Below, piece after piece: positions 12,251-46,700 of a stretch of 64,000 nt of DNA (position 1 is the first letter of the stretch; each line of letters opens with the position of its first letter). A program made the position numbers and the translations under genes. This stretch comes from Nitrosopumilus sp. (GTDB lineage: Archaea; Thermoproteota; Nitrososphaeria; Nitrososphaerales; Nitrosopumilaceae): positions 1,472,001 to 1,536,000 of the forward strand of contig OZ240211.1 in the NCBI GenBank assembly GCA_965197525.1, read 5' to 3'. The notes under the pieces were generated by a model. It was not told where the DNA came from and did not search any database. It saw only the letters and a program-made list of their open reading frames with translations.

Positions 12251-13903
12251 ATGGCATCGATTCAACAAGGACCAAATGGGCCTGTACTTGTCCTCAAAGA
12301 GAGCGCGTTACAACAAAAAGGTAAAGATGCTCAACAAAATAACATTGCAGCAGCAAAACTAGTTGCACAACTCGTTAGAAGCAGTCTTGGTCCTAGAGGT
12401 TTAGACAAGATGCTCGTTGATTCCTTGGGCGATGTAACTATTACAAATGATGGCGCTACAATTCTCAAAGAGATTGATGTTCAACATCCTGCAGCCAAGA
12501 TGATGGTTGAAATTTCTAAAACCGTAGACAACGAGGTTGGCGATGGTACTACCTCTTCTGTTATATTTGGCGGTGCTTTGCTAGCTAGAGCAGAAGATCT
12601 TCTCAACAAGGATGTTCACTCTTCAACTATAATTGACGGTTATCAGGCTGCAGCAGACAAAACTCTTGAAATCTATTCTGAATTAGCAAAAAAGATCCAA
12701 CATGACGACCGCGAATCACTATTACAAATCGCTACAACAAGTATGCAATCAAAATTAGTATCTGAGGATAGTGATGCCCTCTCAAAAATTGTTGTTGATG
12801 CTGTTTTAAGCATTGTAGTTAAGAATGGTGATAATTACGTAGTTGATCTAGATAATATCAAAGTAGAGAAAAAATCAGGCGGCTCAATATCTGATACTCA
12901 AATTATTAAAGGAATTGTTCTTGATAAAGAGATTGTTCACAGTGGCATGCCTACAAAGACGGAGAATGCCAAAATTGCATTAATCAACTCTGCATTAGAG
13001 ATTGAAAAGACCGAATTGAGTGCAGAGATTAGAATATCTGACCCAACACAGATGCAGATGTTCCTAGAAGAAGAGAATAGAATGTTAAAGACGATGGTTG
13101 ACAAATTACATGATGTGGGTGCCAATGTCCTGATATGTCAAAAAGGAATTGACGATATCTCTCAGCACTACCTTGCAAAGTATGGTATTATGGCAGTACG
13201 TCGTGTCAAAGAGAGCGATATGACAAAACTTGCAAAGGCTACAGGTGGACGAGTAATAAACAACCTTGATGATCTTACTGAAAATGATCTTGGTCATGCT
13301 GATTTGGCACATCAAAAGAAGGTTGAATCTGACAAGTGGGTTTTCATTGAAGGGTGCAAACATCCGCTATCAGTCACTTTGCTGATTCGTGGTGGTACAC
13401 AGCGACTAATTGATGAAGTTGACCGCTCTATTCATGATTCTTTAATGGTAGTAAAAGACGTTATTGAAACACCTGCAATTGTTGCAGGCGGCGGTGCCCC
13501 AGAAGCATATGTGGCATCTTTGCTCAAAAATTGGGCTGATAGCTTTGATGGAAGAGAGCAGTTGGCAATTAAAAAATATGCTGAAGCATTAGAGACTATA
13601 CCACTTACCATTGCTGAAAATGCCGGAATGGATCCCATTGATACAATGGCTAATCTGCGAGCAAAACAGAACCAAAACCAAAAGTGGACTGGAATTGATG
13701 CTAGAAATATGAAGATTGCAGATATGATGCCACTAGGCGTTATAGAACCAATTACAGTAAAAGAGCAGATAATCAAATCTGCTACAGAGGCTGCATGCAT
13801 GATACTGCGAATTGATGATGTAATTGCAGTATCGGGCGGTCCTGGAGGTGGCGGCGGTCCTGGTGCCGGTGGTATGCCGCCTGGCATGCCTGGAATGGGC
13901 TAG
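12251..13903 (+). CDS. ths: Thermosome (group II chaperonin) subunit, canonical
   Basis: [34 protein letters not shown]-type Gly/Met/Pro tail. Confidence 0.96.
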
Positions 13904-13948
13904 TAGTAGTAGTAGTAGTAGTAATAGTAGTAGTAGTAGTAGTAGTAG
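13901..13948 (+). repeat. (TAG)7-TAA-(TAG)8 microsatellite starting at the ths stop codon
   Basis: Direct reading of 13901..13948. Confidence 0.95.
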
Positions 13949-13998
13949 TATAGTCTGATACTGTACTGGCAGTCTAACTAAACTAATTATCTATCTAG

Positions 13999-14286
13999 GT
14001 AATTGTGTAATTTTTTGACGTGATTTTTAACCTTTAAAAATAATATTTTGATCTTAGGTTATCTGAAACCACGATTACAGTGTTTAATTATGTCCAACGA
14101 CACAGTCGAAGATCACTGGAAGCATAGATATGAAAAATTAGAGCGTCAGATGAAGGAAGAGATGGCCAAGAAGACAAAAAGATAGATAAATTGGAGGAAA
14201 TGGTAAACAGGTTGGAAGGACTGCTTGCCAATGCAGTTAACCAGATAAAGACAATTACACTTGAGATGAGTCGTGCAAAAGAGGCT
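13999..14286 (+). mobile_element. IS66 remnant, left copy (left end plus 5' of transposase)
   Basis: About 94% identical to 23943..24227; encodes MSNDTVEDHWKHRYEKLERQMKEEMAK/DKKIDKLEEMVNRLE coiled coil. Confidence 0.8.
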
Positions 14287-14320
14287 GCCGCTGCTGCGGT
14301 AAATGCAAGAAATATAGTTT

Positions 14321-16009
14321 CTAATAATACTGATGCATCTGCCTCTGCTCTAACCCCTCTTGCTCAAAGTGGTTATGCGACTTGCCTCCGTCATGATGTG
14401 CATGAACTGTTCCGTCAATATGGCAATGTGTGTTATCAATCAAATCCTTGATAAACACATCATCCACGTTTAGCAGCATGTTGACAGTCTCAACTGCAGT
14501 TATCAGGACTTGCTGTTTTACAACTGCGGTCTCCATAATTTGATGGAGCGACATGTCAGACACTTTTCTTGTAGCAGCGTCTATCCCGCACCACTTGACG
14601 TTGCTATTAGACAGCGTTTGGAGTTGTGTAAATGTGTCAATTACATCCATTCCTATATTTTGGGCCAGTGTCAACGGTATCTGCTCAAGGGCGCTTGCAA
14701 ATCTTTGCATTCCGATCTGCTCCTTGCCGGGAACAGACAATGAGTGATCTTTAATCTCTTGCGCAATCAGCCATTCGACAGAGCCTGCACCGCGTACAAC
14801 AAATGGACTTTGAATAAAATTGCGTAGCACATAAAATGCGTTCAAGACATTCCTGTGGAATTCGTCAAGATAGCGCTTAGAGTTTGCCCTTAACAACAAA
14901 GTTACGGATTTTGGATTACTGTCATTGCTGCTCTCAATGAAGACCATGCTGTCACCCCCGACAGTTCTCTGATAGACATTCTTTGCAAGACCTAACTCAG
15001 CATCCGATATTTCATGTATACTCTTGCATGTTTTCGCGGCAGTTGCTTTTTCCAGCCACCACAGATCATTGTACTTTACACGACGCATCGAGATGATGCC
15101 ATGTTTTGCAAGTTTGGTTTGAACATACTCACTTACGCCCTTTCTTGACACCACTACGTTGGCTCCAGAGTCTACGATGCACCCTACTAGCGCAAGCAGG
15201 TCTGTATCCTCTTGGTCAATGAATGAGCCCATCTGGCTGGGGGAGGTAATCTCTATCTGAGATTCGGTCCTTGTCCTCATGGTCTCCAGTGGATCATTTA
15301 GCAGTAAAATTTTGGCATCAATAATGCTTTTGGGCATCGCAGAGCTGTCTATTGTCTTGTCAATGACTATGCCCCTGACTAGTTCGGTGTCAAGAATGCT
15401 ACCAAGCTTTTCCTCAATCTTTATGTCATCCACACTGATCTTTCCGTTCTGCAGATCAGCTACGCTACACACCGCATCAACGATGGTCTCAACGATTTGT
15501 TCAGGATTATCATGCAAGTCAAATATTGCTTTTCCTCCAAGACACGTAACTAGCAGACGCCTCATCATTTCCCTGTCTGTCCGGTTTGCCACCGTCTTAA
15601 TTTTTTCCAATACATTCAGGGCATATTCAAGGCTTTGCTCGTATGACTTTACAATTGCGGCTACAGGAAATTGCATTTTTAACAGCGTCTCGGCTTGGCC
15701 GATCAGACTACCTATCAGGACAGATGCGGATGTCGTGCCATCTCCAACATGGGTGTCAACGATATTTACAGCGTCCACAACAGACTTGCCTGCGGGATGA
15801 AGAACATCTGTCTTTCTTAAAAATGCACCGCCGTGGCCTGTTATCGTCTCTTCCCCAAGTATGTCAATATACATTTTTTCCATGCCGCGCGGCCCCAGAG
15901 ACGTCTTTATGATATCAGTGACAAGTCTTCCTGACATCAGGTTGTATTTTTGTGAGTCCTGCAGTCCAACACGTGAAATATCACCATCGAGAAGATCAGG
16001 ATATTTCAT
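14321..16009 (-). CDS. Divergent group II chaperonin (thermosome-like) with His-rich C-terminal tail
   Basis: Colinear with ths; GPRGMEKM and GDGTTS kept, but TND is TGH and HD is LN; tail HCHIDGTVHAHHDGGKSHNH. Confidence 0.9.
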   Translation of the reverse strand: MKYPDLLDGDISRVGLQDSQKYNLMSGRLVTDIIKTSLGPRGMEKMYIDILGEETITGHGGAFLRKTDVLHPAGKSVVDAVNIVDTHVGDGTTSASVLIGSLIGQAETLLKMQFPVAAIVKSYEQSLEYALNVLEKIKTVANRTDREMMRRLLVTCLGGKAIFDLHDNPEQIVETIVDAVCSVADLQNGKISVDDIKIEEKLGSILDTELVRGIVIDKTIDSSAMPKSIIDAKILLLNDPLETMRTRTESQIEITSPSQMGSFIDQEDTDLLALVGCIVDSGANVVVSRKGVSEYVQTKLAKHGIISMRRVKYNDLWWLEKATAAKTCKSIHEISDAELGLAKNVYQRTVGGDSMVFIESSNDSNPKSVTLLLRANSKRYLDEFHRNVLNAFYVLRNFIQSPFVVRGAGSVEWLIAQEIKDHSLSVPGKEQIGMQRFASALEQIPLTLAQNIGMDVIDTFTQLQTLSNSNVKWCGIDAATRKVSDMSLHQIMETAVVKQQVLITAVETVNMLLNVDDVFIKDLIDNTHCHIDGTVHAHHDGGKSHNHFEQEGLEQRQMHQYY

Positions 16010-16192
16010 TTAACTTTCCAGAGCATATGTAGTATTAAAACATAGCAGCTGTTGGCGTCATCTAAAAAATTATAATTCATGCATAACTAAAAACTTTATA
16101 AAAATTATCTTCATTTTTTCAGGTTGCATACAGGTACAAAATGTATTTGACAAAAAAGACACACAAACAATTTTGTTGGCAGGCAGATGATC

Positions 16193-17782
16193 TCAAAGTT
16201 TGCTGTCACTCGTTATGACATCGTCAGGTCCCGGAGTGTCGGGCGTGCTAGATGCTGTAAGTCCGGAACCGTCATTCTCCTTGAAATGCTTCAGATCCTC
16301 TCCTGTGATTACGTCCTCTTCTGGAGGCACATAATCCCGTATATCGTGTCTTGCCTTTCCTGGGTACTTGTCTTGTGTCACAAGTGCTACAATCACAAAT
16401 AGCGCAATCCCGATGGCAGGTGCTATCATGGCCTCTATTCCCGCCAGCTCCTCAGGCGTGATAAAGAACATAATCAGCCTGACGGCCGAGCCTGTGATAA
16501 GGCACGCCATGGCAGCAGGCATGTTTGCCTTTTTCCAGAACAGGCCAAACGTTAGCGGTCCAAACGCTCCTGCAAGCACAATGTCAAATGCCAGTACAAG
16601 ATAAATTCCAGGGGCCGGTGCAAGATATCCGATGGTTGTCCCAGCTATCATCATCGGCACAAGTACGATACGGGTAACATTGAGCAGTTTGCGATCGCTC
16701 CAGTTTGCCTGCCCCATCCATCGTCGCCGAATTATTCTTTGCGTCAAGTTTCTTGATATGACACTTGATATTGCCAGCAGCCCTCCACTGGCAGTAGACA
16801 TGGACGCGCCGATAACTCCCATCAGTATGGCCGCCCCTATTGCAAACGGTAAGAACTGTGTGGATAGTATAGGAAGCGCCAGCGCCGGATCGGTGTCACC
16901 TGGCAGGAAATAGAATGCCACTATTCCTAACATACTTGTTGGAATTATCGTAAACATTGTCAGCATGCCTCCCATGAATGCTCCTCTTTGGGCAGTCTTG
17001 GGATTTTTGGCAGAGAATACACGTTCCATAAAGTCAAGTGCAATGATATCCCCTAGCCCCAATGCAAGAAGGGCACCCCAGTTGATTAACGCACCGTTTG
17101 CAATATCATACAGTCCTGAAAGATCTAGGAACTCTGGCGGAGCTGCACTGTATATGATGTCCCATGGAACTTCTGAAAAACCGCCAAAGAAGAATAGGAA
17201 TGCGGCCCAAAACGATCCTATGGCAAGATATACCTGAAATAGATTGGTATAAGCTGATGCAAACAGTCCGCCTGCAATTGTGTAGGCAACTATTACACTA
17301 GCTGCAATCGTTATTCCCCAAAAGTAATCTATGCCAAAAACAACCTGTAGGATAAATCCACTGGCAGCCAGATTACCTGCAACAAGAATGAGAAAGCCGA
17401 TGATCAGGAGAATGCTGGAGATTCCTTCAGCGCCGTTGCCGAATCTTCTGAAATAAAAATCAGGTAGCGTAATCATCGACATCTTGTTCAGGGGCTTGGC
17501 ATAAAATATGGCCACTATAAACAGACACACTCCAAGACCTAGTGGAACAACTGCCCCTGCCCAAAATCCAAACTCAAAGACCAGTGCGATATTTCCAAGC
17601 GACGAGTTCCCGTCTACTGCCTGAGCTGCAAGCATTGTTCCCACCATAAATAAAGGCAGACTTTTTCCTGCAACTATCAGTCTCTTGCCGCTATGTCTGA
17701 CTAGCCTGCCTGCAAATACTCCAACTACAAGTGTAATAATTATAAAAGCTGCAACTGCGATACCAAAACCGTCCAGTTCCAT
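16193..17782 (-). CDS. Sodium:solute symporter (SSS) family transporter
   Basis: About 13 hydrophobic segments; YTIAGGLFASAYT, ERVFSAK, AILMGVIGASMSTASG, GLFWKKAN. Confidence 0.9.
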   Translation of the reverse strand: MELDGFGIAVAAFIIITLVVGVFAGRLVRHSGKRLIVAGKSLPLFMVGTMLAAQAVDGNSSLGNIALVFEFGFWAGAVVPLGLGVCLFIVAIFYAKPLNKMSMITLPDFYFRRFGNGAEGISSILLIIGFLILVAGNLAASGFILQVVFGIDYFWGITIAASVIVAYTIAGGLFASAYTNLFQVYLAIGSFWAAFLFFFGGFSEVPWDIIYSAAPPEFLDLSGLYDIANGALINWGALLALGLGDIIALDFMERVFSAKNPKTAQRGAFMGGMLTMFTIIPTSMLGIVAFYFLPGDTDPALALPILSTQFLPFAIGAAILMGVIGASMSTASGGLLAISSVISRNLTQRIIRRRWMGQANWSDRKLLNVTRIVLVPMMIAGTTIGYLAPAPGIYLVLAFDIVLAGAFGPLTFGLFWKKANMPAAMACLITGSAVRLIMFFITPEELAGIEAMIAPAIGIALFVIVALVTQDKYPGKARHDIRDYVPPEEDVITGEDLKHFKENDGSGLTASSTPDTPGPDDVITSDSKL

Positions 17783-18142
17783 AATTATACATGTTGAAAA
17801 AATTATATAAATATGCGATTTTGACTGTAAAATACGTTTTATACTCTAAAAAACAATACGTATAATACATTTTTTGTTAAAATTCATGTAAATTTTACAA
17901 TATAAAGAAATTTGGATAATGGTTACGACAAGTTCAAACGCGGTTTAATGGCAAAAAAAAATAGATGTGTTTTTGAGAAATGTGTAGTATAATGATGATG
18001 CAATAAGAATGCAGTTTACATATAAGAAAACAATTCGGAGAGATAGCGGCAAAAGAAATTACCAAGCTTGTTTAAAAGATAAGACAGCTATGCTCTGCAA
18101 TCCAATTCAAAATTTTATTAGTTTGGCACTGTTAAAAACGGC

Positions 18143-18316
18143 ATGGACAAGCAATACGCTTTTGCAGTCATACTAATCATCATTGGAGTTGGGTTAAGCC
18201 AGTCCGGAACAGGCGATTCTTTTTTTATAGGTCTTGGTGTTGGAACTGTAATAATGGGTTCGTTTTGGGTATTGATCAGAATAATAAAAGAGATCAAAAA
18301 GAAAGAGCAAAAATAA
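18143..18316 (+). CDS. Small two-TM membrane protein (57 aa), not in track
   Basis: MDKQYAFAVILIIIGVGLSQSGTGDSFFIGLGVGTVIMGSFWVLIRIIKEIKKKEQK; positive-inside tail. Confidence 0.6.
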   Translation: MDKQYAFAVILIIIGVGLSQSGTGDSFFIGLGVGTVIMGSFWVLIRIIKEIKKKEQK

Positions 18317-18358
18317 AAACAGATCGTGAAAAAAATATAAACTATAATCTGTGAATTA

Positions 18359-18886
18359 ATGCAAATGCCTGCAAAAGGATATGCCACAATTGGTTTGAAA
18401 CCTGCAATTCTAAAAAAGCTGCACGAAGTGACAGACAAAAGCTATCCTGGAATGTTCCTGCCCAGCACACTAATTATCATGATGAATGAGATCAAGAACG
18501 GGTCATACTCTGTAGAGTTGCACAACATTAGACTGGATTTGTCAGGTCACTACAACACTATAACCATCAGATTGGATGTGCAACAATGGCTAGAAGAAAA
18601 TCACAAGAAGTTGAGTGCAGAGTATGAGGAGAGATACAGGATAAAATCTTTTACAAAATTCGTGAGCTACTTTATTATCAACGCACTTGAGTCAAAGCTT
18701 AACAGTCAAAACCACACCATCAACCTAAAAGAGTCAGACTACGAATGGCTGCAAAAAGAGTACAATAAACACAAGGAAGGCATTACCGACTTTCAAGAGG
18801 TTCCAAGCTTTGACAAGTTTGCGGACATTTACATTAATAATTTGTTTGAGAAGATCAAGGCTGCAAAAAAGATCTTGACGATATAA
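18359..18886 (+). CDS. Hypothetical protein, possibly a tandem ribbon-helix-helix DNA-binding protein
   Basis: Three units TIGLKPAILKKL / TITIRLDVQQWL / TINLKESDYEWL; start may be 18365. Confidence 0.7.
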   Translation: MQMPAKGYATIGLKPAILKKLHEVTDKSYPGMFLPSTLIIMMNEIKNGSYSVELHNIRLDLSGHYNTITIRLDVQQWLEENHKKLSAEYEERYRIKSFTKFVSYFIINALESKLNSQNHTINLKESDYEWLQKEYNKHKEGITDFQEVPSFDKFADIYINNLFEKIKAAKKILTI

Positions 18887-19258
18887 GATGTCTGATTCAG
18901 CTGGTGGTTGCAAAGACGCCAAACACAACAAAGACTGATCCGCCAAAACGCCGCCATTATTTTTTTTTTAAGAAAACCAGGGGATAAGGTACAAAAAGAC
19001 AGATGATAGATGTACAGATAGGCACAAATATCTGAAAATTTGCTAAAAAGACTGCTTGTACGCAGTAGCCAGATATATGAAAACTGTTTTCAGGACATAG
19101 TGATACCCAAACAACAAGTTTTTCAAGCAATGTCAAGTTTCAGGGTCACGTTTGATTAGATCTAAGAAGACATATGACGATTCATAGATACCAAAAATCT
19201 ACATGTGATGTTTGCGGTAACACATAGTTATGACGAGTCAAACTCCAAATAAGAAAAA

Positions 19259-19510
19259 TTAGAGTGGAACCATTGTATCAATCAATCGTGCGTTAGTGAC
19301 TTGTCCATCTTTTTCCTGCATCTCAAGGTCTACCGTATATTTTAGAGAGTTCAGCATGAAATTAACCTGAATGTCCCATGCCTCTCTAGTTCCTTTTTCA
19401 GGTACTGCAAACGTCTCGTTGACTCTAAAGTCACTTACGTCTCCATACAATGCATTGATCACTCTTTTGGATTCTCGATATATGTCGTCATTCGTACTTA
19501 CTTTTTGCAT
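19259..19510 (-). CDS. Small hypothetical protein
   Basis: MQKVSTNDDIYRESKRVINALYG..; second ATG (19510) preferred to track start 19531. Confidence 0.7.
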   Translation of the reverse strand: MQKVSTNDDIYRESKRVINALYGDVSDFRVNETFAVPEKGTREAWDIQVNFMLNSLKYTVDLEMQEKDGQVTNARLIDTMVPL

Positions 19511-19879
19511 GGTTATACTACATATACTCAAATATAAAAATATTATAAGATGGAAGATGACTGAAATTTTTCAGTGTCTCCACATGCAAGAGATCAGATA
19601 TATTAATAACGCCTTTGAGGCTGCGATCAGCCAACACACGGCAGACGGTTTTGAGAGTCTTTTTTTTTGCAGTGCGCAGATATAACCTCACTGAGAACTT
19701 TAATGCCTATGCAAGATAATCTTTAACAGTATGACAAGTTTTATCAAAGATTTTTTTTTTTTGAGATTTGGGACAAGGCAAGATCTGCTTTGCATTGTTG
19801 CCGTCATTTATCTGAGAATGTCCACGGTATGCAGGTGTGTGGACAAAATAAATTGTTTGTATATCTCTTGCAGTAAGAT

Positions 19880-21133
19880 CTATAGGCCGCCAAATTTTTT
19901 TGAAAGCGGCACGCGGTTTATTTTTGCCAATTCTGCCTCAGCCTTATATTTATGATAAAGCGCAGTTTGGTTTTCAGGATCAATTGCAAGGGCCTTGTCA
20001 TACCATTTCAGAGACAGATCGTATTTTTCGAGTCGCAAGAACAGTTTTCCTTTGTAGCTTAGTGCGTATACATAATTTGGGTTAATTGCAAGGGCCTTGT
20101 CGCAGTACTCTAGTGCCTCAGTGTATTTTTTAGAATGCTCCAACAGCCATACCATGCTACACAACGCAGTAATATTTTGAGGCTCGATATCAAGTGCACG
20201 CTGACAATAAAATCTTGCAGCAGCAAAGTGCTTCATCGAAAACAGCGATACACCCTTGCTGTAAAGTGCCCGTGTGTTAGTTGAGTCATACTCTAGAACT
20301 TTATCAAAACATTTCGCGGCTTTTTTGTAAAGTCCCGTCCTGTCCAGAACCAGACCCTTGTTTATCCATGCATCAGTGCATCGAGGGTCAATCTCCAAAG
20401 CCCTGTCATAAAATACAAAGATCTCCTTGTTTGAGAATCCAGCAAAATCAAGTATCCATCCTTTGGCCACAAGCGCCTTTGTATTTTTGTTGTTTATCTC
20501 AAGAGCTTTGGTATAGAATTTTATTGCATCCTTGTGTTTTTTCTGTTTTGTGAGTTTTTGTCCTTGTTCATAGAGTTTATCAGATTGCGCGGAATCCTCT
20601 GCGATGGCACGGTTTAAAAACAATATTGATTCAGAACTCCTATCTAGCTTTCCCAATATCATGCTCTTGTTGTAAAGTGCAGAAGCGTTGTTTGGATTAG
20701 ATGACAAAATCCGTTCGGTTATTTCAAGTGCCTTGTCGTATTGGCCCAACTTGTAAAAGCACAGTCCCATCAATATCAACGAATCAGTGTATGTACAGTC
20801 AATATCAAGCGATCTCTGAAAGCAGCGTATGGCCTTGTCGTACTGTTTCGTCTTTTCAAGCGCAACCCCTTTGGCGTACAAGGTATCTATGCTTTTTGGA
20901 TCAGATGACAAAATGTGATCAAAGCATACTATGGCCTTTTGAAACTTTTCCATTTTATTGAGCGTTATGCCTTTGTGGAGATATGCCGTATGGTTGTCAG
21001 GATCAACGGAGATGGATTTGTCAAACTTTGAGACAGCCTTTTTGTAGTCATTGTAATAGATGGCAGTCAATCCCTGATTCAAGAAATACCACGAGTTCTT
21101 TGAATTTTTTAACAGCATGATTACTTGACGCAA
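19880..21133 (-). CDS. Tetratricopeptide-repeat protein (about 11 TPRs)
   Basis: Repeated ~34-aa units A-x3-KG..Y-x2-A-x3-(F/Y)DKAL-x-I(D/N)P. Confidence 0.92.
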   Translation of the reverse strand: MRQVIMLLKNSKNSWYFLNQGLTAIYYNDYKKAVSKFDKSISVDPDNHTAYLHKGITLNKMEKFQKAIVCFDHILSSDPKSIDTLYAKGVALEKTKQYDKAIRCFQRSLDIDCTYTDSLILMGLCFYKLGQYDKALEITERILSSNPNNASALYNKSMILGKLDRSSESILFLNRAIAEDSAQSDKLYEQGQKLTKQKKHKDAIKFYTKALEINNKNTKALVAKGWILDFAGFSNKEIFVFYDRALEIDPRCTDAWINKGLVLDRTGLYKKAAKCFDKVLEYDSTNTRALYSKGVSLFSMKHFAAARFYCQRALDIEPQNITALCSMVWLLEHSKKYTEALEYCDKALAINPNYVYALSYKGKLFLRLEKYDLSLKWYDKALAIDPENQTALYHKYKAEAELAKINRVPLSKKFGGL

Positions 21134-21535
21134 GTGATATTTTTATCTTTGAATCGTATATTACGGATATGGTCTCGTTCTTGACGGTTTTTACTTGATG
21201 CGGGAAAGATATGCACATGACATAATCTAATTTGAGGACAGGAGGTTGAGAGTATGCACGGTATAGATTTTTCAGACAACAAGAGCTGTCATCTAGGGCG
21301 TTGCAGGTGTTTTTGATCAGATGAAAAATGGTACGCGTTCAGGTTGTCTGAGAAAACTTTGCAGTTTAGGCGGTGTGGCATGCTTTGAGAACATTTCTAG
21401 TCTTCCCAGGCACAGTGCAAACACGTGCAAAAAACGCAATATAGGAAGTATTTTGAAAATTTTGCAGTTTAAATGCAAAACCAAAGCCTACTTGGAAGAA
21501 CGGTCTGTTTTCCAGGCAAAGGTAAAGATACAGCC

Positions 21536-22294
21536 CTAGTTCAATAAAAACAGGTCGGATTTCAGCCCAACTGTAAATATGATGTTTATTCCGACAACCA
21601 GCGTTACACCAGCTATGGCGTATCTGACATACTTGGCGGCAAGATGAATTTTTGGCAGCAATAACATAAATGAGATTCCCAAAACACCACTGGCAAGGGA
21701 CATGCCAACTATGCTGCCAATACCAAACAGGACTAGGAAGTAAACCACAATGTCAAAACTACCCATTGTGGATGCAGCAAGCGCTACAATACTGCCGCTT
21801 CCTGCAAGGCCGTGAATGCAACCTATTATGTATGACTTGTGGCCGTGCTTGTGATCCGTATTGTGCGTGTGGGGATGGGTGTGAGAGATTCCGTTTGGAT
21901 GCTTGTGTGAATGTGTATGTTTTTGCCTTAGAATGCTTTTGTTAGCGGCTGTCATAACCCCCAAAAATATCAGCATAGAACCCACTATAACTTCCGCACT
22001 CAAAAAGAAAGTGTCAGATATACTCAATGAGAGACCTGCAATCAGCAGGCCGATCAATACGATGCTGGATGTATGCCCCATTCCCCACAGCATGCCTTTG
22101 AAGGAAGAGAAGACTGTCAGGATTTTTAGATTCGTTTTTTTCGAGGTACGGTTGTTGTTATCGTTTAGAACCTGTGTAGAGACCGCACTGATATGATCAG
22201 GCTCAAAAGCATGTACCAGTCCGATCACAAGACCTGCAACGAGTATCAAGAAAGGATTGTTTGCTTGTAATATTTCAATCAACACATCAATCAT
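21536..22294 (-). CDS. NiCoT/UreH-like nickel-cobalt transport or urease-accessory membrane protein
   Basis: HAFEPDH (H-x4-DH) signature, WGMGHT, loop with 11 His, HGLAGS. Confidence 0.85.
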   Translation of the reverse strand: MIDVLIEILQANNPFLILVAGLVIGLVHAFEPDHISAVSTQVLNDNNNRTSKKTNLKILTVFSSFKGMLWGMGHTSSIVLIGLLIAGLSLSISDTFFLSAEVIVGSMLIFLGVMTAANKSILRQKHTHSHKHPNGISHTHPHTHNTDHKHGHKSYIIGCIHGLAGSGSIVALAASTMGSFDIVVYFLVLFGIGSIVGMSLASGVLGISFMLLLPKIHLAAKYVRYAIAGVTLVVGINIIFTVGLKSDLFLLN

Positions 22295-22767
22295 TACAAG
22301 GTACCCCCGGACGGCGGTTCTGATTGAATGAAGGGATATTCGTTGATATGGATGGGTGCTGTGACCAAAATTGTCTTGACATGATCGTTGTAATGAGCAT
22401 CAATATTGTTGCCATCACCATCACCATCACCATCATCAGATACAGCACCTGCATCATTTGCAATAATCGTAAAGGTCAGCTCCCTTAGGCTCTCAGGAAC
22501 GCCAATCATGACTTGATGCGGCAACAGAATCTTTGGAATATGGTTTTGGATTTCATCGACTGCCTTGCCTTCATTCAGTGAGAGTATAACATATGCAACA
22601 AACAGTTCCAAGACTTGGTCTACGTTTAGCCTCATATTATTTAGAAGACTGTCTTTGATCTGCTGAACAGATGCTAGAAATATCGATTCATCAGACGCGT
22701 CATAATGAAATACCCTGATAAACGACTCGGTGTCCGGATCTCCTTGTACGGAGACTTTGATCTCCAT
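22294..22767 (-). CDS. Urease gamma-subunit-like protein
   Basis: RLNVDQ..NEGKAVDEI..ILLPHQVMIGVPESL..ILVTAPI follows the UreA pattern; 1-nt stop/start overlaps on both sides. Confidence 0.7.
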   Translation of the reverse strand: MEIKVSVQGDPDTESFIRVFHYDASDESIFLASVQQIKDSLLNNMRLNVDQVLELFVAYVILSLNEGKAVDEIQNHIPKILLPHQVMIGVPESLRELTFTIIANDAGAVSDDGDGDGDGNNIDAHYNDHVKTILVTAPIHINEYPFIQSEPPSGGTL

Positions 22768-23882
22768 TAACTTCTCTCAGGTATTTTAGAGGTCGAATTA
22801 CCAAAACTGTATGTGTTTCCAGTTCCCCGATAATCGTTAGGCCTTACCGGATCTCCTCCATCAAGCCCTCGCTTTGTTAGTGATAATCCAGCTAAAAGCT
22901 CTATAACCAGTCTTTGTCCCAGTCCAGATGTAATGCCTCCATTGTAAGAACTGTTATCGCTTACGTCGTATGCAGGTGAGATCTCTACTAGATCCATTGC
23001 AAATCTGTCAGGATCAAATGACTTTGATAGCAGTCGTATCATTCTAATCCCTTCCCTTGATGTAAGGCCGTTTGGCTCAGGCTCGCCGGTACCTGGTGCA
23101 TAAGCAGGATCAAAAGAGTCGATATCCCAACTAAGGTACACTGCATCAGTCCCGTCATTTGCCCTGTCTGCTATCTCTTTGGCAATGTAATCAATTCCCA
23201 GTTCTTCAACATCAAGCATTGTAAACCATTGAAAGTCTTGATCCGCCATCCATTTGTACAGATCACGGCCAGGCCAGTATCCTCTTGGACCCACTAGAGA
23301 GTAGTTTCTTCCCTTCAGACAGCCCATTTCCATTATTCTTCTGATATGTGCACCATGGTCGTATTTGAAACCTGTCAGGCCTTGGGGGGCACAATCTGCG
23401 TGGGTATCAAAGTGAATCATACCAATGTTCTTGTATTTTTTTGCAAAAGCCCGAACATTTGCATAAGTAATAGAATGATCCCCTCCAAGCATTACAGGAA
23501 TGCCATCTGCCTCTAACACCTCTTTGACCTTCAGGGTCATTCTTTTGTGCGACTCTATAACATCGCCTGGCGAGACTATGACATCACCATAGTCAACTGT
23601 TCTGAAAGTGCCAAACGGATCTGCACCCGTCTCGATATTGAACCTCTCAAATGGTGGGGAGGGCACAGTTGATGCCGCCCTTATTGCCCTTGGACCGTAT
23701 CGCGCACCAGGACGAATGGTTGTGCCAAAATCAAATGGTTCTCCGATAATTGCAACATCAGGTTTTGCCTGTAGTAACTCTTTGTGGTTTTTTATCAATG
23801 GAAGATGCAAAAATGTATTAATTCCTACAAATGGTGCAACATCTGCACCCTGAAAATCCTCACCGTAAAATTCTGCACCCAT
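22767..23882 (-). CDS. Ureohydrolase (agmatinase/guanidino-hydrolase family), substrate unknown
   Basis: RPGARYGP, GGDHS, DTHAD, HG, DIDSFDP, PGTG; all binuclear metal ligands present. Confidence 0.92.
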   Translation of the reverse strand: MGAEFYGEDFQGADVAPFVGINTFLHLPLIKNHKELLQAKPDVAIIGEPFDFGTTIRPGARYGPRAIRAASTVPSPPFERFNIETGADPFGTFRTVDYGDVIVSPGDVIESHKRMTLKVKEVLEADGIPVMLGGDHSITYANVRAFAKKYKNIGMIHFDTHADCAPQGLTGFKYDHGAHIRRIMEMGCLKGRNYSLVGPRGYWPGRDLYKWMADQDFQWFTMLDVEELGIDYIAKEIADRANDGTDAVYLSWDIDSFDPAYAPGTGEPEPNGLTSREGIRMIRLLSKSFDPDRFAMDLVEISPAYDVSDNSSYNGGITSGLGQRLVIELLAGLSLTKRGLDGGDPVRPNDYRGTGNTYSFGNSTSKIPERS

Positions 23883-23942
23883 TTTAACAGAGATTGTAAG
23901 CTCTTTTGATTATTAAGTATTGCATGTAAAATACGCATTTTT

Positions 23943-24560
23943 GTAATTGCATAGTTTTTTGAAGTGATTTTTAACCTTAAATAATATTTTGATCTTAGGT
24001 TATCTGAAACCACGATTACAGTGTTTAATTATGTCCAACGACTCAACCGAAGATCATTGGAAGCATAGATATGAAAAATTAGAGCGTCAGATAAAGGAAG
24101 AGATGGCCAAGAAGACAAAAAGATAGATAAATTGTAGGAAATGGTAAACAAGTTGGAAGGACTGCTTACCAATGCAGTTAACCAGATAAAGACAATTACA
24201 CTTTAGATGAATAGTGCAAAAGAGGCTTCATTCTTGCCCTCATCAACAGGCTCAAAGGAGAGAAATACAAGCATTGCAACAGGATGCTCAAGAGGATCAG
24301 AAGAGAGAAAGGCCACCTGTTTACGTTACTTGAGGTTGAAAGAATGAGTGACATGACAACTCTGTAGAGAGGGAGAGGGGGCATCAGACAGTGCGTCATA
24401 CTGCGCAATAACAGCTATGGGAGCAGGTCCGAAGAATGGGCATCGGCCATAGTAGTGTTGATGAGTGTAAAACAAACCTGCAAGGCAAAGAACAATAATT
24501 TGTTCGATGATGTAATGCGCATGAATTTGTTCAAAACGTGTCAAAAAACTACCTAGTTGC
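23943..24560 (+). mobile_element. Internally deleted IS66 (618 bp) retaining both ends
   Basis: 5' part as the left copy; then frameshifted transposase C-terminus RMLKRIRREKGHLFT..DNSVER..IRQCVILRNNSYGSRSEE..LMSVKQTCK (NNxAERxLR..GxRS..SxxxTC pattern). Confidence 0.88.
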
Positions 24561-24628
24561 CTATCTAGTTATTTCCCTACACTAATATCACTTTCCTGAA
24601 AGCTTAACTATTCTGATCTCATAATTTA

Positions 24629-40793: not shown

Positions 40794-43700
40794 GTTTTAA
40801 TCTTTGTTGTATTAGAATTTCCTTTGAACTGCCTTGTGGTATACGCAGAGTGTGAGGGTATATTGGTTTCAATCTTTGTTGTATTAGAATTTCCTTTGAA
40901 CTATGCCCACTATCCAAAATCGATCCCCCCCCCCTGTTAGTTTCAATCTTTGTTGTATTAGAATTTCCTTTGAACCTAGAAGCAACTAATCCAGTCGCTT
41001 GACCTGCACCGTTTCAATCTTTGTTGTATTAGAATTTCCTTTGAACAAATGTGGGTAGGTATTGAATACCCATCATCATTTAGTTTCAATCTTTGTTGTA
41101 TTAGAATTTCCTTTGAACCAAATGTCAATACTCAAAGACGCTTTAACTAAGTCGTTTCAATCTTTGTTGTATTAGAATTTCCTTTGAACCGATCCCTCAA
41201 TCTTGGAATAGACTACTTTCAAGAGTTTCAATCTTTGTTGTATTAGAATTTCCTTTGAACATAGTGTAAAGGCAGAGAGGGATTATGTTGGCACGTTTCA
41301 ATCTTTGTTGTATTAGAATTTCCTTTGAACGCGTTATTGGGGTATGGTCCTCATCCAAATGCTAGTTTCAATCTTTGTTGTATTAGAATTTCCTTTGAAC
41401 TTGTTTTTTTTATCAAATTGTAAAAAAAAGCAATATGTTTCAATCTTTGTTGTATTAGAATTTCCTTTGAACTAACTTGCACTAGTGAATCTTCCCAGAT
41501 AACATCGTTTCAATCTTTGTTGTATTAGAATTTCCTTTGAACTGTCAGATGATCTACTGTTTGTATTTGTTCTGTTGCGTTTCAATCTTTGTTGTATTAG
41601 AATTTCCTTTGAACTTCAAAGCCACCTTCGATTCCAGCTGCTGCCAAAGGTTTCAATCTTTGTTGTATTAGAATTTCCTTTGAACTCATCACCTCTAATA
41701 CTTTCAAATATATCATTACGTTTCAATCTTTGTTGTATTAGAATTTCCTTTGAACCTTATTGCATCCATCCGTGAAATATCGTCAAACAGGTTTCAATCT
41801 TTGTTGTATTAGAATTTCCTTTGAACGGAGATAAAATATTTCATCAGCCGGAGGGATATGGGTTTCAATCTTTGTTGTATTAGAATTTCCTTTGAACTTA
41901 CCCAGATGGTGATTGATTATATGCCAAGAGAGTTTCAATCTTTGTTGTATTAGAATTTCCTTTGAACATTCTGCTTATGTTGATATCGATGACGATGCAA
42001 TGTTTCAATCTTTGTTGTATTAGAATTTCCTTTGAACTTGATGTAAAAAATTCTTATCTTCTGACCATTTGGAGTTTCAATCTTTGTTGTATTAGAATTT
42101 CCTTTGAACTGATCTGCCATAACGGCCCCGGTACCATAGGCAACGTTTCAATCTTTGTTGTATTAGAATTTCCTTTGAACATATGTTGATTGTTGCATTA
42201 GATCGAAACTATTGGTTTCAATCTTTGTTGTATTAGAATTTCCTTTGAACTTGTAAATTCTATATCCTCAATATAATCCAATGTCAGTTTCAATCTTTGT
42301 TGTATTAGAATTTCCTTTGAACTCTATACCTGAAGATACTGATTGTCCTACACCATGTTTCAATCTTTGTTGTATTAGAATTTCCTTTGAACCGCTTTTT
42401 TCTATTTTTATCATGTCTCTTGTTAAACGTTTCAATCTTTGTTGTATTAGAATTTCCTTTGAACTTCAGTGAGGGATCTGCTTGTGTCTTTGTCTATGGC
42501 AGTTTCAATCTTTGTTGTATTAGAATTTCCTTTGAACTGTCCACTTCCTGTTTAGTGTCAAAATCTTGTGAGTTTCAATCTTTGTTGTATTAGAATTTCC
42601 TTTGAACCTGGTTTTTTCATGGAATCACTGCTAGTTATCAAGTTTCAATCTTTGTTGTATTAGAATTTCCTTTGAACCATCATTATTTTTTATAGAGCCT
42701 TTTGGTTTTATGTTTCAATCTTTGTTGTATTAGAATTTCCTTTGAACTAAGCATTAACGCCAATCAACCCGGGCAGGTCTGGGTTTCAATCTTTGTTGTA
42801 TTAGAATTTCCTTTGAACTAATGCACAACAAGGCAAACCTGTCAGGGTCTGCTGGTTTCAATCTTTGTTGTATTAGAATTTCCTTTGAACCATCTAATAA
42901 TCCCTTATCTCTAGCTATCCAATAGTTTCAATCTTTGTTGTATTAGAATTTCCTTTGAACCCGTTGTTAGGAAATTGGAACCGCCTGCGATTGTGGTTTC
43001 AATCTTTGTTGTATTAGAATTTCCTTTGAACGCTGTGTTGATGGTGGTACTTGGATTCTCGAGGGTGTTTCAATCTTTGTTGTATTAGAATTTCCTTTGA
43101 ACAAAGGGTAATTGAAAGAAAACACATAACCCCTATTAAGTTTCAATCTTTGTTGTATTAGAATTTCCTTTGAACCATCCTATCAGTAACCCTATTTAGC
43201 CACAATTGGAGTTTCAATCTTTGTTGTATTAGAATTTCCTTTGAACTACTGCCATGTTCAGTATTATAGCCCAATTCGAGGTTTCAATCTTTGTTGTATT
43301 AGAATTTCCTTTGAACGCTATACTGTCCTGAACATTATGGCAGTCATGCTAAGTTTCAATCTTTGTTGTATTAGAATTTCCTTTGAACTATTTGGTGGTA
43401 CTTGATGGTGATTATGAAGATGAGTTTCAATCTTTGTTGTATTAGAATTTCCTTTGAACTGACCCACCAACACCAGTTTCTACAATAATAGAGTGTTTCA
43501 ATCTTTGTTGTATTAGAATTTCCTTTGAACCCAACTGGTAACCTGTTTGGCCCGGTGTACCGCCGTTTCAATCTTTGTTGTATTAGAATTTCCTTTGAAC
43601 CAACTTGCTATTCATTTTTGTGAATCCGTTTTCGTTGTTTCAATCTTTGTTGTATTAGAATTTCCTTTGAACTAACTGCTTTTCTTCTGTTGTTTTTGTA

Positions 43701-46700
43701 CAATAGATGTTTCAATCTTTGTTGTATTAGAATTTCCTTTGAACTTTGGGGCGATATAATCAATCTTGGAACACTTGGTAGTTTCAATCTTTGTTGTATT
43801 AGAATTTCCTTTGAACAGGCCACTCAGCCATGTATGTACGACGGTATTCTGGTTTCAATCTTTGTTGTATTAGAATTTCCTTTGAACCCATTTTTTGACC
43901 CCCCTACTCAGTGTGGGCATAGTTTCAATCTTTGTTGTATTAGAATTTCCTTTGAACTGTGATAGTGGAATCAGACAGTGTTTGGATTACTGGTTTCAAT
44001 CTTTGTTGTATTAGAATTTCCTTTGAACCCATTACCCAATCGACCTGTTGGTTTTATCACTAGTTTCAATCTTTGTTGTATTAGAATTTCCTTTGAACCG
44101 TGGCGGTTCTCGTGGTGGATTCTCTCAAGGAGGGTTTCAATCTTTGTTGTATTAGAATTTCCTTTGAACTTTTTTTTTCTGTTCAGGGGATCGGCTGATT
44201 GATCCGTTTCAATCTTTGTTGTATTAGAATTTCCTTTGAACTTTGACAGTTTCGGGTGTATGTTTCCCTTTATGTTCAGTTTCAATCTTTGTTGTATTAG
44301 AATTTCCTTTGAACTTGTAGCAGATGATACTAAGTCTATATTGTTTCAGGGGTTTCAATCTTTGTTGTATTAGAATTTCCTTTGAACGTTTACAATCATA
44401 TTACCAAACAGATGATTTTTCAGGTTTCAATCTTTGTTGTATTAGAATTTCCTTTGAACTTCTTTAGGTAATAATTTGTCATGTGCTTTAACAGTTTCAA
44501 TCTTTGTTGTATTAGAATTTCCTTTGAACTTATGAGACCCAAGTTTAATAGAGGATGTGTGACGGTTTCAATCTTTGTTGTATTAGAATTTCCTTTGAAC
44601 TTCAGAGAGGCGGCGATCGCTACAATCCGATCAGCGTTTCAATCTTTGTTGTATTAGAATTTCCTTTGAACTCGAGTATAATTTCAGAACTGGTTTTAGA
44701 GTAACCGGTTTCAATCTTTGTTGTATTAGAATTTCCTTTGAACTATGGCCAATTGCCCCCCCTTTCTGGAGGAGATCGTTTCAATCTTTGTTGTATTAGA
44801 ATTTCCTTTGAACCTTTATCGTCAATGATTCCATGCAGCTCTTTGGGGTTTCAATCTTTGTTGTATTAGAATTTCCTTTGAACTTTAAGCGCGCGGACAA
44901 TAGTTGCTGTCACTAATGTTTCAATCTTTGTTGTATTAGAATTTCCTTTGAACTAACATACCTCAACGAGATCACAACTTGCAAAACGAGTTTCAATCTT
45001 TGTTGTATTAGAATTTCCTTTGAACGACCGATACAGTAAAGGACACAGTGGAACACGCATGTTTCAATCTTTGTTGTATTAGAATTTCCTTTGAACCTGG
45101 TTACTGTCTCCTGATCTTGAATCAGTACGAAGTTTCAATCTTTGTTGTATTAGAATTTCCTTTGAACTGTGGCATTCTCATGGAATAGATCAGACATTGA
45201 ATGTTTCAATCTTTGTTGTATTAGAATTTCCTTTGAACTATAGACCCACACCTGATAAGACTCTATCACAACAGTTTCAATCTTTGTTGTATTAGAATTT
45301 CCTTTGAACATCTGTCCACTAGTGGAACCTAAGATGGTCACAAGTTTCAATCTTTGTTGTATTAGAATTTCCTTTGAACAGTTCTATCCTCGTGGGTCAG
45401 CACGTTGTTCTTGTGTTTCAATCTTTGTTGTATTAGAATTTCCTTTGAACTTCCATTTATGCCAAACTGTACTAATTTCTCGCCGTTTCAATCTTTGTTG
45501 TATTAGAATTTCCTTTGAACTTGCCTCATATTGTTGGATTGCCTCAGTAGGTGTGTTTCAATCTTTGTTGTATTAGAATTTCCTTTGAACGTGCCTATGC
45601 AGTTTAACGAGGTGCTAATTATTGGGTTTCAATCTTTGTTGTATTAGAATTTCCTTTGAACTAATTATAACCAAGTAATATCGTACGATCTTTAAGTTTC
45701 AATCTTTGTTGTATTAGAATTTCCTTTGAACTTTACCATCTTTTTGAGGCGGCTCCACTTTGGAGGGTTTCAATCTTTGTTGTATTAGAATTTCCTTTGA
45801 ACATTGTATCAAGATTTTGATACGTATGAATACAATAGTTTCAATCTTTGTTGTATTAGAATTTCCTTTGAACCCGGCGGCAATTTTTGGAGCGGGACGC
45901 GTGATGTAGTTTCAATCTTTGTTGTATTAGAATTTCCTTTGAACTATTTACTCGGAACACACCACAGAAGCAGGTCACAGTTTCAATCTTTGTTGTATTA
46001 GAATTTCCTTTGAACCATCGCCAAGCTAAATTGGAAGGTGATCACTCTCAGTTTCAATCTTTGTTGTATTAGAATTTCCTTTGAACAGCATTGGACAGCA
46101 GAGGCGCCCCACCTACAAGAGTTTCAATCTTTGTTGTATTAGAATTTCCTTTGAACTTTCATCCGTCACTTCCTCATGATATAATTGCTTGTTTCAATCT
46201 TTGTTGTATTAGAATTTCCTTTGAACCCCCTCTCATTCATCTCTTTGACTGCCTGGTTACCGGTTTCAATCTTTGTTGTATTAGAATTTCCTTTGAACTT
46301 TCTCAGCAGCACCTGGGCTATCCAAATACCAAGTTTCAATCTTTGTTGTATTAGAATTTCCTTTGAACAATGTGTCGCGCCTTCTGTCGTGAATGGATTT
46401 GTGTTTCAATCTTTGTTGTATTAGAATTTCCTTTGAACTGAGACCATGTATCACTGTATAATGACAATGCCACAATCGTTTCAATCTTTGTTGTATTAGA
46501 ATTTCCTTTGAACTTATTTGGCTTTCCGCCTATCCTAGTCGTTGGCAGTTTCAATCTTTGTTGTATTAGAATTTCCTTTGAACCTTGCTCATCTGCTCAC
46601 TCAATGGGAGGAGGTGAGTTTCAATCTTTGTTGTATTAGAATTTCCTTTGAACAAACCGATCTGGTTTTTACATCATATACAACATTGAGTTTCAATCTT

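Follow-up and report, generated by a model that had tools for sequence, protein, structure and literature searches.

Ammonia, urea and, in rare cases, cyanate are the compounds on which ammonia-oxidizing archaea (AOA) are believed to subsist; to our knowledge, the use of guanidine has been established only for comammox bacteria. The closest enzymes of known structure to the subject of this work are members of the arginase family, namely the guanidinobutyrase GbuA of Pseudomonas, the guanidine hydrolase GdmH of Synechocystis and the guanidinase of Nitrospira inopinata, whose product, urea, needs urease for full nitrogen release. Here, we analyze a ureohydrolase (UH) of this family that is encoded in a window of 64,000 nucleotides (positions 1,472,001 to 1,536,000 of contig OZ240211.1, assembly GCA_965197525.1) from the complete 2.21-Mb genome of Nitrosopumilus sp. 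UH shares a gene block with a module-specific symporter of the sodium/solute symporter (SSS) family, SSS2, and with accessory genes that include a thermosome (group II chaperonin) paralog with a histidine-rich tail, a NicO-like permease and a UreA-like protein, and the whole block is enclosed by IS66-type ends (Table 1). We consider it fairly probable that this pair of transporter and hydrolase supplies urease with urea split off from a guanidino compound taken up by the cell, the block being the accessory half of a urea-utilization island of AOA.

Parts of such a block have been described before. An "Hsp60 homolog" (arCOG01257) was recorded at the urease loci of Nitrosocaldus and Nitrososphaerales and was reported as absent from Nitrosopumilales (Abby et al. 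2018, PMC5797428), and, in the hadal metagenome-assembled genome (MAG) MTA1, urease and a "unique" symporter have an additional thermosome nearby (Zhong et al. 2020, PMC7265257). In one soil clade, an association of this SSS with an agmatinase has been noted (PMC11131427). In our reading of the literature, no paper testing the UH enzyme was found, and neither an archaeal guanidine hydrolase nor a haloarchaeal urease-linked ureohydrolase was found.

The distribution of the block across genomes ties it to urease. Co-occurrence was scored in 151 Nitrosopumilaceae genomes, each at least 85% complete, with UH orthologs counted at an identity of at least 78%. The urease gene ureC was present in 80 genomes, plus one weak match, and UH in 61, of which 60 were ureC-positive. 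SSS2 was found in 60 genomes, a set almost identical to that of the UH carriers; 58 genomes had the His-tailed thermosome and 55 gave strong matches to the UreA-like protein. For these last two, every carrier was urease-positive with the exception of G096, an assembly of 300 contigs that is 85% complete. UH was shared with SSS2 in 59 genomes and with the chaperonin in 57, and the mismatches fell in fragmented assemblies. Apart from G096, none of the ureC-negative genomes carried UH, SSS2 or the chaperonin. Conversely, 20 ureC-positive genomes lacked all three. Because 60 of the 61 UH carriers have ureC while these 20 genomes are module-free, we conclude that the module depends on urease and that urease does not depend on the module, which is the pattern expected for a pathway ending in urea. 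The other two operon members follow UH less strictly. The distribution of the NicO-like gene is looser: of its 75 carriers among the 151 genomes, 19 are urease-negative, and two UH-positive genera do without it. Seven UH-positive genomes have no UreA-like gene, which is dispensable in several lineages. A true urease, whose presence elsewhere in the genome an earlier note on this DNA had set down as a check, is indeed encoded outside the window (ureCBA and ureEFGD).

The arrangement of the genes is conserved as well. The same genes, in nearly the same order, were found in 80 Nitrosopumilaceae loci. In most of these, transcription of the UH operon leads away from the TPR and SSS genes, and the operon is inverted, with all of these genes co-oriented, in the window genome and in one close relative (L001). 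The UH, UreA-like and NicO-like genes of the window form a minus-strand operon that is coupled through two TAATG stop/start overlaps. The block directly borders ureCBA and ureEFGD in a number of Nitrosopumilus relatives. Moreover, UH orthologs (73–82% identity) occur in two further families of the order, both of which carry the gene set without insertion sequence (IS) ends. In a Nitrososphaeraceae-like family (f14), the set comprises orf175, the SSS gene, UH, the UreA-like gene, the His-tailed thermosome and orf90, with ureABC adjoining in one locus; in the other family (f3), UH, the UreA-like gene in part of the loci, the NicO-like gene and ureA-B-C-E-F-G-D stand in one co-directional cluster. 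The earlier note had described five co-oriented minus-strand genes as a candidate for a new, mobile system. All five were found, together with three further genes (TPR, 175-aa and 83-aa), and neighborhood analysis indicates one coherent, co-inherited module across AOA families. The claim of a new mobile system did not hold, because the same module is already present across AOA, often beside or fused to the urease operon, and its novelty is limited further by the published descriptions of parts of the block (PMC5797428, PMC7265257, PMC11131427). The module is thus an ancient accessory block of the AOA urease island, not a new or transposon-borne system.

Outside AOA, the pair recurs in a second archaeal phylum. 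A search of 1.84 billion cluster representatives returned one full-length sister cluster of UH at 49% identity, with the same GTGEPEP signature and C-terminal extension, the other full-length clusters reaching at most 43%. The sister cluster is that of Halobacteria, with 51 loci from many genera, and an SSS2 homolog (30–40% identity) lies about 3 kb from the sister UH in 42 of these loci. Besides this homolog, only a PhoU/MazE-type regulator is conserved beside the gene; the pair has no conserved neighbor that would act on a second product, and no NicO-like, UreA-like or extra chaperonin gene was found in the haloarchaeal modules. Urease lies within 10 kb of the sister UH in about nine loci. 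Among 121 Halobacteriales genomes, ureC was present in 29 and the sister UH in 7, and all 7 belong to the 29, an overlap with a chance of ~2e-5 if genomes are independent; the two genes are often on other contigs or megabases apart. A bacterial case of UH–urease linkage is provided by an Aquificaceae MAG (L168:9198-15100), in which a UH relative, 54% identical to the window UH, directly follows ureA in a urease cluster with ureG and ureD downstream. Of other near relatives of UH, one sits in a putrescine-type catabolic cluster and two are on contigs too short for their context to be read, observations with no bearing on the UH clade.

UH matches the arginase family with 269.6 bits against a cut-off of 22 (PF00491). 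The ligands of its binuclear metal site, H136, D159, H161, D163, D253 and D255 (motifs GGDHS, DxHxD and DxD), are invariant in 14 orthologs and are the same as in GbuA, GdmH and the N. inopinata guanidinase. Because all six ligands are invariant, UH is predicted to be active, and judged from its sequence it looks like an active enzyme distinct from the housekeeping agmatinase. It falls below both cut-offs for the agmatinase SpeB (154.5 bits against 174.3 for TIGR01230 and 204.6 against 302 for NF002564), and its identity across AOA is 73–99%. The window genome encodes two other arginase-family paralogs, a count in agreement with the two to three speB copies reported for AOA (PMC10753782).

Among solved structures, the best matches to UH were GbuA (3NIO), Synechocystis GdmH (7OI1/7ESR) and the N. 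inopinata guanidinase (9FEK), with E = 3e-50 to 3e-47. Unlike these enzymes, to which its identity is low (165–175 bits), UH carries a conserved C-terminal extension of ~40 residues, is paired with an SSS symporter and not with an ABC or APC transporter, and has neither a riboswitch nor a HypA/HypB-like partner. The residues reported for guanidine hydrolysis are T97, H214, W305 and E336 in Synechocystis, corresponding to T105, H222, W313 and E344 in N. inopinata (PMC11410670). UH retains the equivalents of T97, H214 and E336, three of these four residues, and has an invariant Glu, E267 of the GTGEPEP signature, at the W305 position. The haloarchaeal sister UH also has Glu at this position. Among the 150 nearest cluster representatives, the position is Thr in 66 of the 81 that are readable, and Glu appears only in fragments of the UH clade. 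In family f3, UH ends in a conserved His-rich extension of ~50 residues with a run of 9–11 His (LHxHxD..G.T..HSHxHGHHGHxH), which was observed in four genera.

SSS2 was considered as the known urea symporter of AOA, a candidate that we rejected, since two other SSS genes adjoin ureC and ureD. Three urease-positive, module-free genomes contain an SSS gene of 600–840 aa adjoining ureC, and one of them contains a second SSS gene, with a universal-stress-protein domain, adjoining ureD. Both urease-adjacent SSS genes are also present in the window genome, where they are 57% identical to each other and 22–23% identical to SSS2. Hence SSS2 is not orthologous to the DUR3-like urea symporters of AOA urease clusters, and these urease-adjacent SSS genes are present in SSS2-free genomes. 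The fusion of a urease-adjacent SSS to a C-terminal universal-stress-protein domain was seen at L123:13712-16234 and at 260537-262783 of the window genome.

Based on these findings, we propose a plausible route by which the block could serve AOA. First, SSS2 would take up a guanidino compound. UH would then hydrolyze this compound to urea and a common metabolite, which may be an amine, an amino acid or ammonia. Urease, encoded elsewhere in the genome, would turn the urea into ammonia for energy and nitrogen. The extras of the AOA block (the NicO-like permease, the UreA paralog, the TPR protein, the putative regulator and the His-tailed thermosome) would provide metal supply and folding for the nickel enzyme urease, for UH or for both. 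The sequence of importer and ureohydrolase drawn in the earlier note is thereby retained in outline, with urea as the product that fits an occurrence restricted to urease carriers in two archaeal phyla and with SSS2 set apart from the urease-adjacent symporters.

Several points weigh against this proposal. Related genomes are not independent, so the counts are descriptive and their significance is overstated, and the module genes of AOA are physically linked, so their mutual co-occurrence may reflect linkage and not shared function. The release of urea is argued from the chemistry of the family and the dependence on urease. The substrate of UH could also be made by the cell itself, agmatine being an example, in which case urease would serve only to recycle the nitrogen. 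SSS2 could still carry urea, and SSS genes at AOA urease loci have been called urea transporters (PMC5797428, PMC11131427). Finally, Palatinszky et al., who defined guanidine-degradation genes phylogenetically, found none in AOA (PMC11410670).

The accessory genes bear on what else the block might do, and the chaperonin is the most distinctive of them. Next to the block lies a canonical thermosome gene (12251-13903) that scores 637 bits against PF00118, versus 420.8 bits for the His-tailed paralog. In the window, the latter has a C-terminal tail with 8 His residues and 1 Cys. This tail, THCHIDGTVHAHHDGGKSHNH...HQYY, shows ~90% conservation across 55 orthologs, far more than the rest of the protein; 52 Nitrosopumilaceae copies have the motif THCHIDGTVHAHHDGGKxHNH...HHYY, and its His pattern recurs in three copies of the Nitrososphaeraceae type. 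In the Nitrosopumilaceae proteins, both catalytic Asp residues are replaced (T-x-HGG for TNDG, and VLN for xHD) while GDGTT is kept; in the Nitrososphaeraceae-type proteins, one or the other catalytic Asp is kept. As far as its motifs indicate, the His-tailed thermosome is probably impaired in hydrolysis, and it may work only inside mixed rings with the two canonical subunits. It resembles arCOG01257 and the MTA1 thermosome in being an extra group II chaperonin at urease loci, and the Nitrososphaeraceae-type copies share the His-motif tail. In contrast to what was reported for arCOG01257, it is present in more than a third of the Nitrosopumilaceae sampled and tracks UH and SSS2, not urease alone. 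No mention of the conserved His tail, or of the loss of both catalytic Asp residues in Nitrosopumilaceae, was seen in PMC5797428 or PMC7265257. In family f3, thermosome alignments end at residue 519-520 and none reaches a His tail. That f3 has a His-rich UH tail and no His-tailed chaperonin hints at histidine-rich metal handling tied to UH, although this is a single evolutionary event. Homology between the f3 UH tail and the chaperonin tail was tried as an explanation and was not adopted, the local alignment being barely above composition (shuffle p 0.015–0.19), a hint and not a finding.

The NicO-like permease, of ~250 aa, matches PF03824 marginally, with 28.7 bits against a cut-off of 27.7. 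It contains the H-x4-D-H signature as HAFEPDH (residues 28-34, in the first helix) and a central His-rich loop, HTHSHKHPNGISHTHPHTHNTDHKHGH, and its gene lies directly downstream of the UH or the UreA-like gene in most loci. UreH sits in the urease gene cluster in Bacillus TB-90. The Pfam match, the signature, the His-rich loop and this kind of place in a urease gene cluster link the permease to the NicO superfamily (NiCoT, UreH, RcnA). However, the score is marginal, the architecture fits the importer UreH and the exporter RcnA alike, and homologs occur in urease-negative genomes.

The UreA-like protein scores below the cut-off of its family (PF00547, 19.2 against 23.9 bits), and relatives of it do carry PF00547. 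The 18 best Foldseek matches of its AlphaFold model are all urease gamma subunits or the equivalent parts of fused ureases, with template-modeling (TM) scores of 0.74-0.79 to the target, and it is ~23% identical to the genome's own UreA, with motifs in common. It is probably a true urease-gamma homolog. It resembles UreA in its modeled fold, in motifs and in being found in urease-positive genomes only, G096 excepted; unlike UreA, it has an extra N-terminal beta hairpin and, in the window genome, an acidic insert, and it is encoded after UH and not before ureB.

Of the smaller genes, TPR stands at the same place in most Nitrosopumilaceae loci, and a short TPR gene is present in the f3 locus. 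The 175-aa gene is kept beside SSS2 in Nitrosopumilaceae and f14 and was not detected in f3. Its product has no Pfam family match. The model of this protein (predicted local distance difference test score, pLDDT, 82) displays a beta-alpha-alpha pattern twice, with weak fold matches to TraY, DndE and AvtR; from this model, it may be a tandem ribbon-helix-helix local regulator. The 83-aa protein, likewise with no Pfam family match, has orthologs of 40–86% identity in the module in all three AOA families.

With these genes in view, the block could instead be read as a support kit for urease. SSS2 would import urea, the NicO-like permease would bring nickel, and the chaperonin and the UreA paralog would help to fold, assemble or load urease. 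UH would then have a minor role, such as that of an agmatinase producing or buffering urea inside the cell. Every part of the block co-occurs with urease and often adjoins urease genes, urease is an established nickel enzyme, and in family f3 the NicO-like gene lies between UH and ureA. Consistent with this reading, the urease-locus chaperonin has been interpreted as a urease stabilizer (PMC5797428), and the SSS proteins and the agmatinase at the locus as urea transporters and as a regulator of the urea level, respectively (PMC11131427). However, the 20 urease-positive genomes with none of SSS2, UH and the chaperonin still have urease-adjacent SSS genes and ureDEFG of their own, and in Halobacteria UH and SSS2 alone travel together, with neither nickel nor chaperonin genes. 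UH is also as conserved as UreC, which would be odd for so minor a role, and the two other arginase-family paralogs can cover polyamine synthesis. We therefore regard an exclusive role in supporting urease as unlikely.

The earlier note placed the metal arm elsewhere, in an account that is compatible with urea production by the pair. UH would be nickel-dependent like GdmH, and the NicO-like permease, the UreA-like protein and the chaperonin would form a dedicated maturation route replacing HypA/HypB-type chaperones. The subfamily of UH does hold nickel enzymes, namely GdmH, the N. inopinata guanidinase and metformin hydrolase (PMC11410670, PMC11399263). The observation that the window lacks HypA extends to the whole genome, in which none was found. 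Moreover, the genes for UH, the UreA-like protein and the NicO-like permease are translationally coupled, the chaperonin tracks UH and is absent from the 20 urease-positive, UH-negative genomes, and f3 has the conserved His-rich UH extension where it lacks the His-tailed chaperonin. On the other side, the ligands of UH are the canonical His/Asp set, which also binds Mn, and the haloarchaeal sister modules do without all three accessory genes. The UreA-like gene is absent from several UH-positive genomes, two UH-positive genera have no NicO-like gene and 19 urease-negative genomes do have one, and the likeness of the f3 tail to the chaperonin tail scarcely exceeds composition in a pattern that arose once. 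As the nickel enzyme of the same island, urease accounts for these genes equally well. We hold a dedicated maturation route for the hydrolase to be unlikely.

A more specific form of our proposal is that UH and SSS2 represent an archaeal, urease-coupled system for the uptake and hydrolysis of free guanidine or a small alkyl-guanidine to urea and ammonia or methylamine. In AOA, the enzyme would be nickel-dependent, with the NicO-like permease supplying the metal and the His-tailed, ATPase-impaired thermosome acting as a metallochaperonin, a part that would be played in f3 by the enzyme's own His tail. This version is consistent with the data because the pair conserves no second-product enzyme, three of the four GdmH residues are kept and an extra invariant Glu lies at the pocket; we put it forward tentatively, as an improbable but specific possibility. 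As for a chance assortment of transposon cargo genes with no common function, the IS66 ends and target-site duplication that bound the block in the window genome would suit it, but synteny refutes it, the same set in nearly the same order being present in about 60 of the 151 Nitrosopumilaceae genomes and, with no IS ends, in two further AOA families, and its probability is negligible.

That the block nevertheless lies inside one transposon in this genome, as the earlier note had it, was borne out. The element spans 13999-24560 (10,562 bp), has IS66-type ends and is flanked on both sides by an 8-bp target duplication. Its 288-bp left segment (13999-14286) recurs at 23943-24227 with 94–96% identity. 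The outer ends are imperfect inverted repeats, the left terminal repeat pairing with 24537-24560 at the right end, and the last 316 bp of the right copy (to 24560) match, at 79%, the terminal part of an IS66 DDE transposase remnant that lies at another place in the genome. Supporting the insertion, the canonical thermosome and ROK kinase genes are 35-47 bp apart in five complete congeneric genomes, which represent the empty site, and 10.6 kb apart here. Like IS66 composite or cargo transposons, the element has imperfect terminal inverted repeats starting with GTAA, an 8-bp duplication and a matching IS66 DDE remnant in the genome; unlike them, it has no transposase of its own, none being found within 13999-24560, and its order is a left end, the cargo, and then a left end plus a right end. 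This layout fits either transposition of the whole unit in trans or a circular intermediate that recombined into a resident deleted IS. A truncated IS66-family DDE transposase (PF03050, E = 1e-36) lies at 2174712-2175587 of the genome (L113:3712-4587), and comparison at the DNA level showed no intact IS66 copy in the genome. An initial view of UH as a core, vertically inherited gene with no transposon involved, drawn from the identity of 84–99% across 80 loci, was ruled out: UH is accessory and urease-linked, and the absence of a transposon was dropped because the ends, the repeats and the empty sites establish the IS66 insertion as real.

The urea island is scattered in this genome, with ureCBA at 425-428 kb, ureEFGD at 257-260 kb and the block at 1.49 Mb. 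A second NicO-like copy, broken into three frames plus a stop and 62–77% identical to the window copy, is located at 2061505-2062294 (L111:5505-6294). It adjoins the gene for deoxyhypusine synthase, and because this gene is also a neighbor of the module in several relatives and another family, the broken copy is probably a relic of the former site of the module. We conclude that the block was cut loose from the urease genes and inserted between the canonical thermosome and ROK kinase genes as an IS66-ended unit. The stop codon of the canonical thermosome gene is the start of a (TAG)n/(TAGTAA) microsatellite of ~17 units (13901-13952), for which the congeners have no counterpart at this place.

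Table 1 Features of the block and its boundaries, in window positions unless a locus is named
Feature	Position	Strand	Basis
Left target-site duplication, 8-bp CTATCTAG	13991..13998	.	Read directly; identical to 24561-24568
Solo IS66-type left end: terminal inverted repeat (starts GTAATTG) and start of small IS open reading frame (ORF)	13999..14286	+	Direct repeat of 23943-24227
Third thermosome (group II chaperonin) paralog, His-rich C-terminal tail	14321..16009	-	PF00118, 421 bits
Module-specific SSS symporter (SSS2)	16193..17782	-	PF00474
175-aa conserved protein, tandem ribbon-helix-helix-like fold, candidate local regulator	18359..18886	+	Fold model
83-aa conserved protein	19259..19510	-	Orthologs in module of all three AOA families
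TPR-repeat protein	19880..21133	-	TPR_1 E = 7.5e-68
NicO/UreH-like six-helix putative metal permease, His-rich loop	21536..22294	-	PF03824, 28.7 bits
Urease-gamma paralog (UreA-like), acidic DG-rich insert	22294..22767	-	Fold; alignment with the genome's own UreA
Arginase-family ureohydrolase (UH), signature GTGEPEPNG	22767..23882	-	PF00491, 270 bits
Internally deleted IS66-family element: left end and right end, without transposase	23943..24560	+	Repeat and IS66 match
Right target-site duplication, 8-bp CTATCTAG	24561..24568	.	Read directly
UH loci of family f3 with His-rich extension	L105:5893-7146, L106:9521-10786, L109:70-1323, L110:2963-4216		

Elsewhere in the window, a clustered regularly interspaced short palindromic repeats (CRISPR) array extends over 40900-51950, in which the 36-nt repeat GTTTCAATCTTTGTTGTATTAGAATTTCCTTTGAAC occurs ~150 times, with a period of ~71. 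The array explains why 11 kb of the window are free of long ORFs and display a strong AT skew, and the genes at 52-60.5 kb are probably cas genes.

The conserved UH–SSS2 pair, tied as it is to urease and carried by roughly three of every four urease-positive Nitrosopumilaceae in the sample as well as by soil lineages, suggests that archaeal nitrification has another organic-nitrogen substrate. If our proposal is correct, the known diet of AOA would be widened; under the more specific guanidine version, archaeal nitrifiers would use guanidine-type compounds directly as substrates, and haloarchaea would obtain nitrogen from them. The chaperonin, with its His tail and its apparent impairment in hydrolysis, may represent a new type of chaperonin that handles metals. 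The module thus offers a concrete enzyme, a concrete transporter and a contrast between strains, and the same pair is present in genetically tractable haloarchaea.

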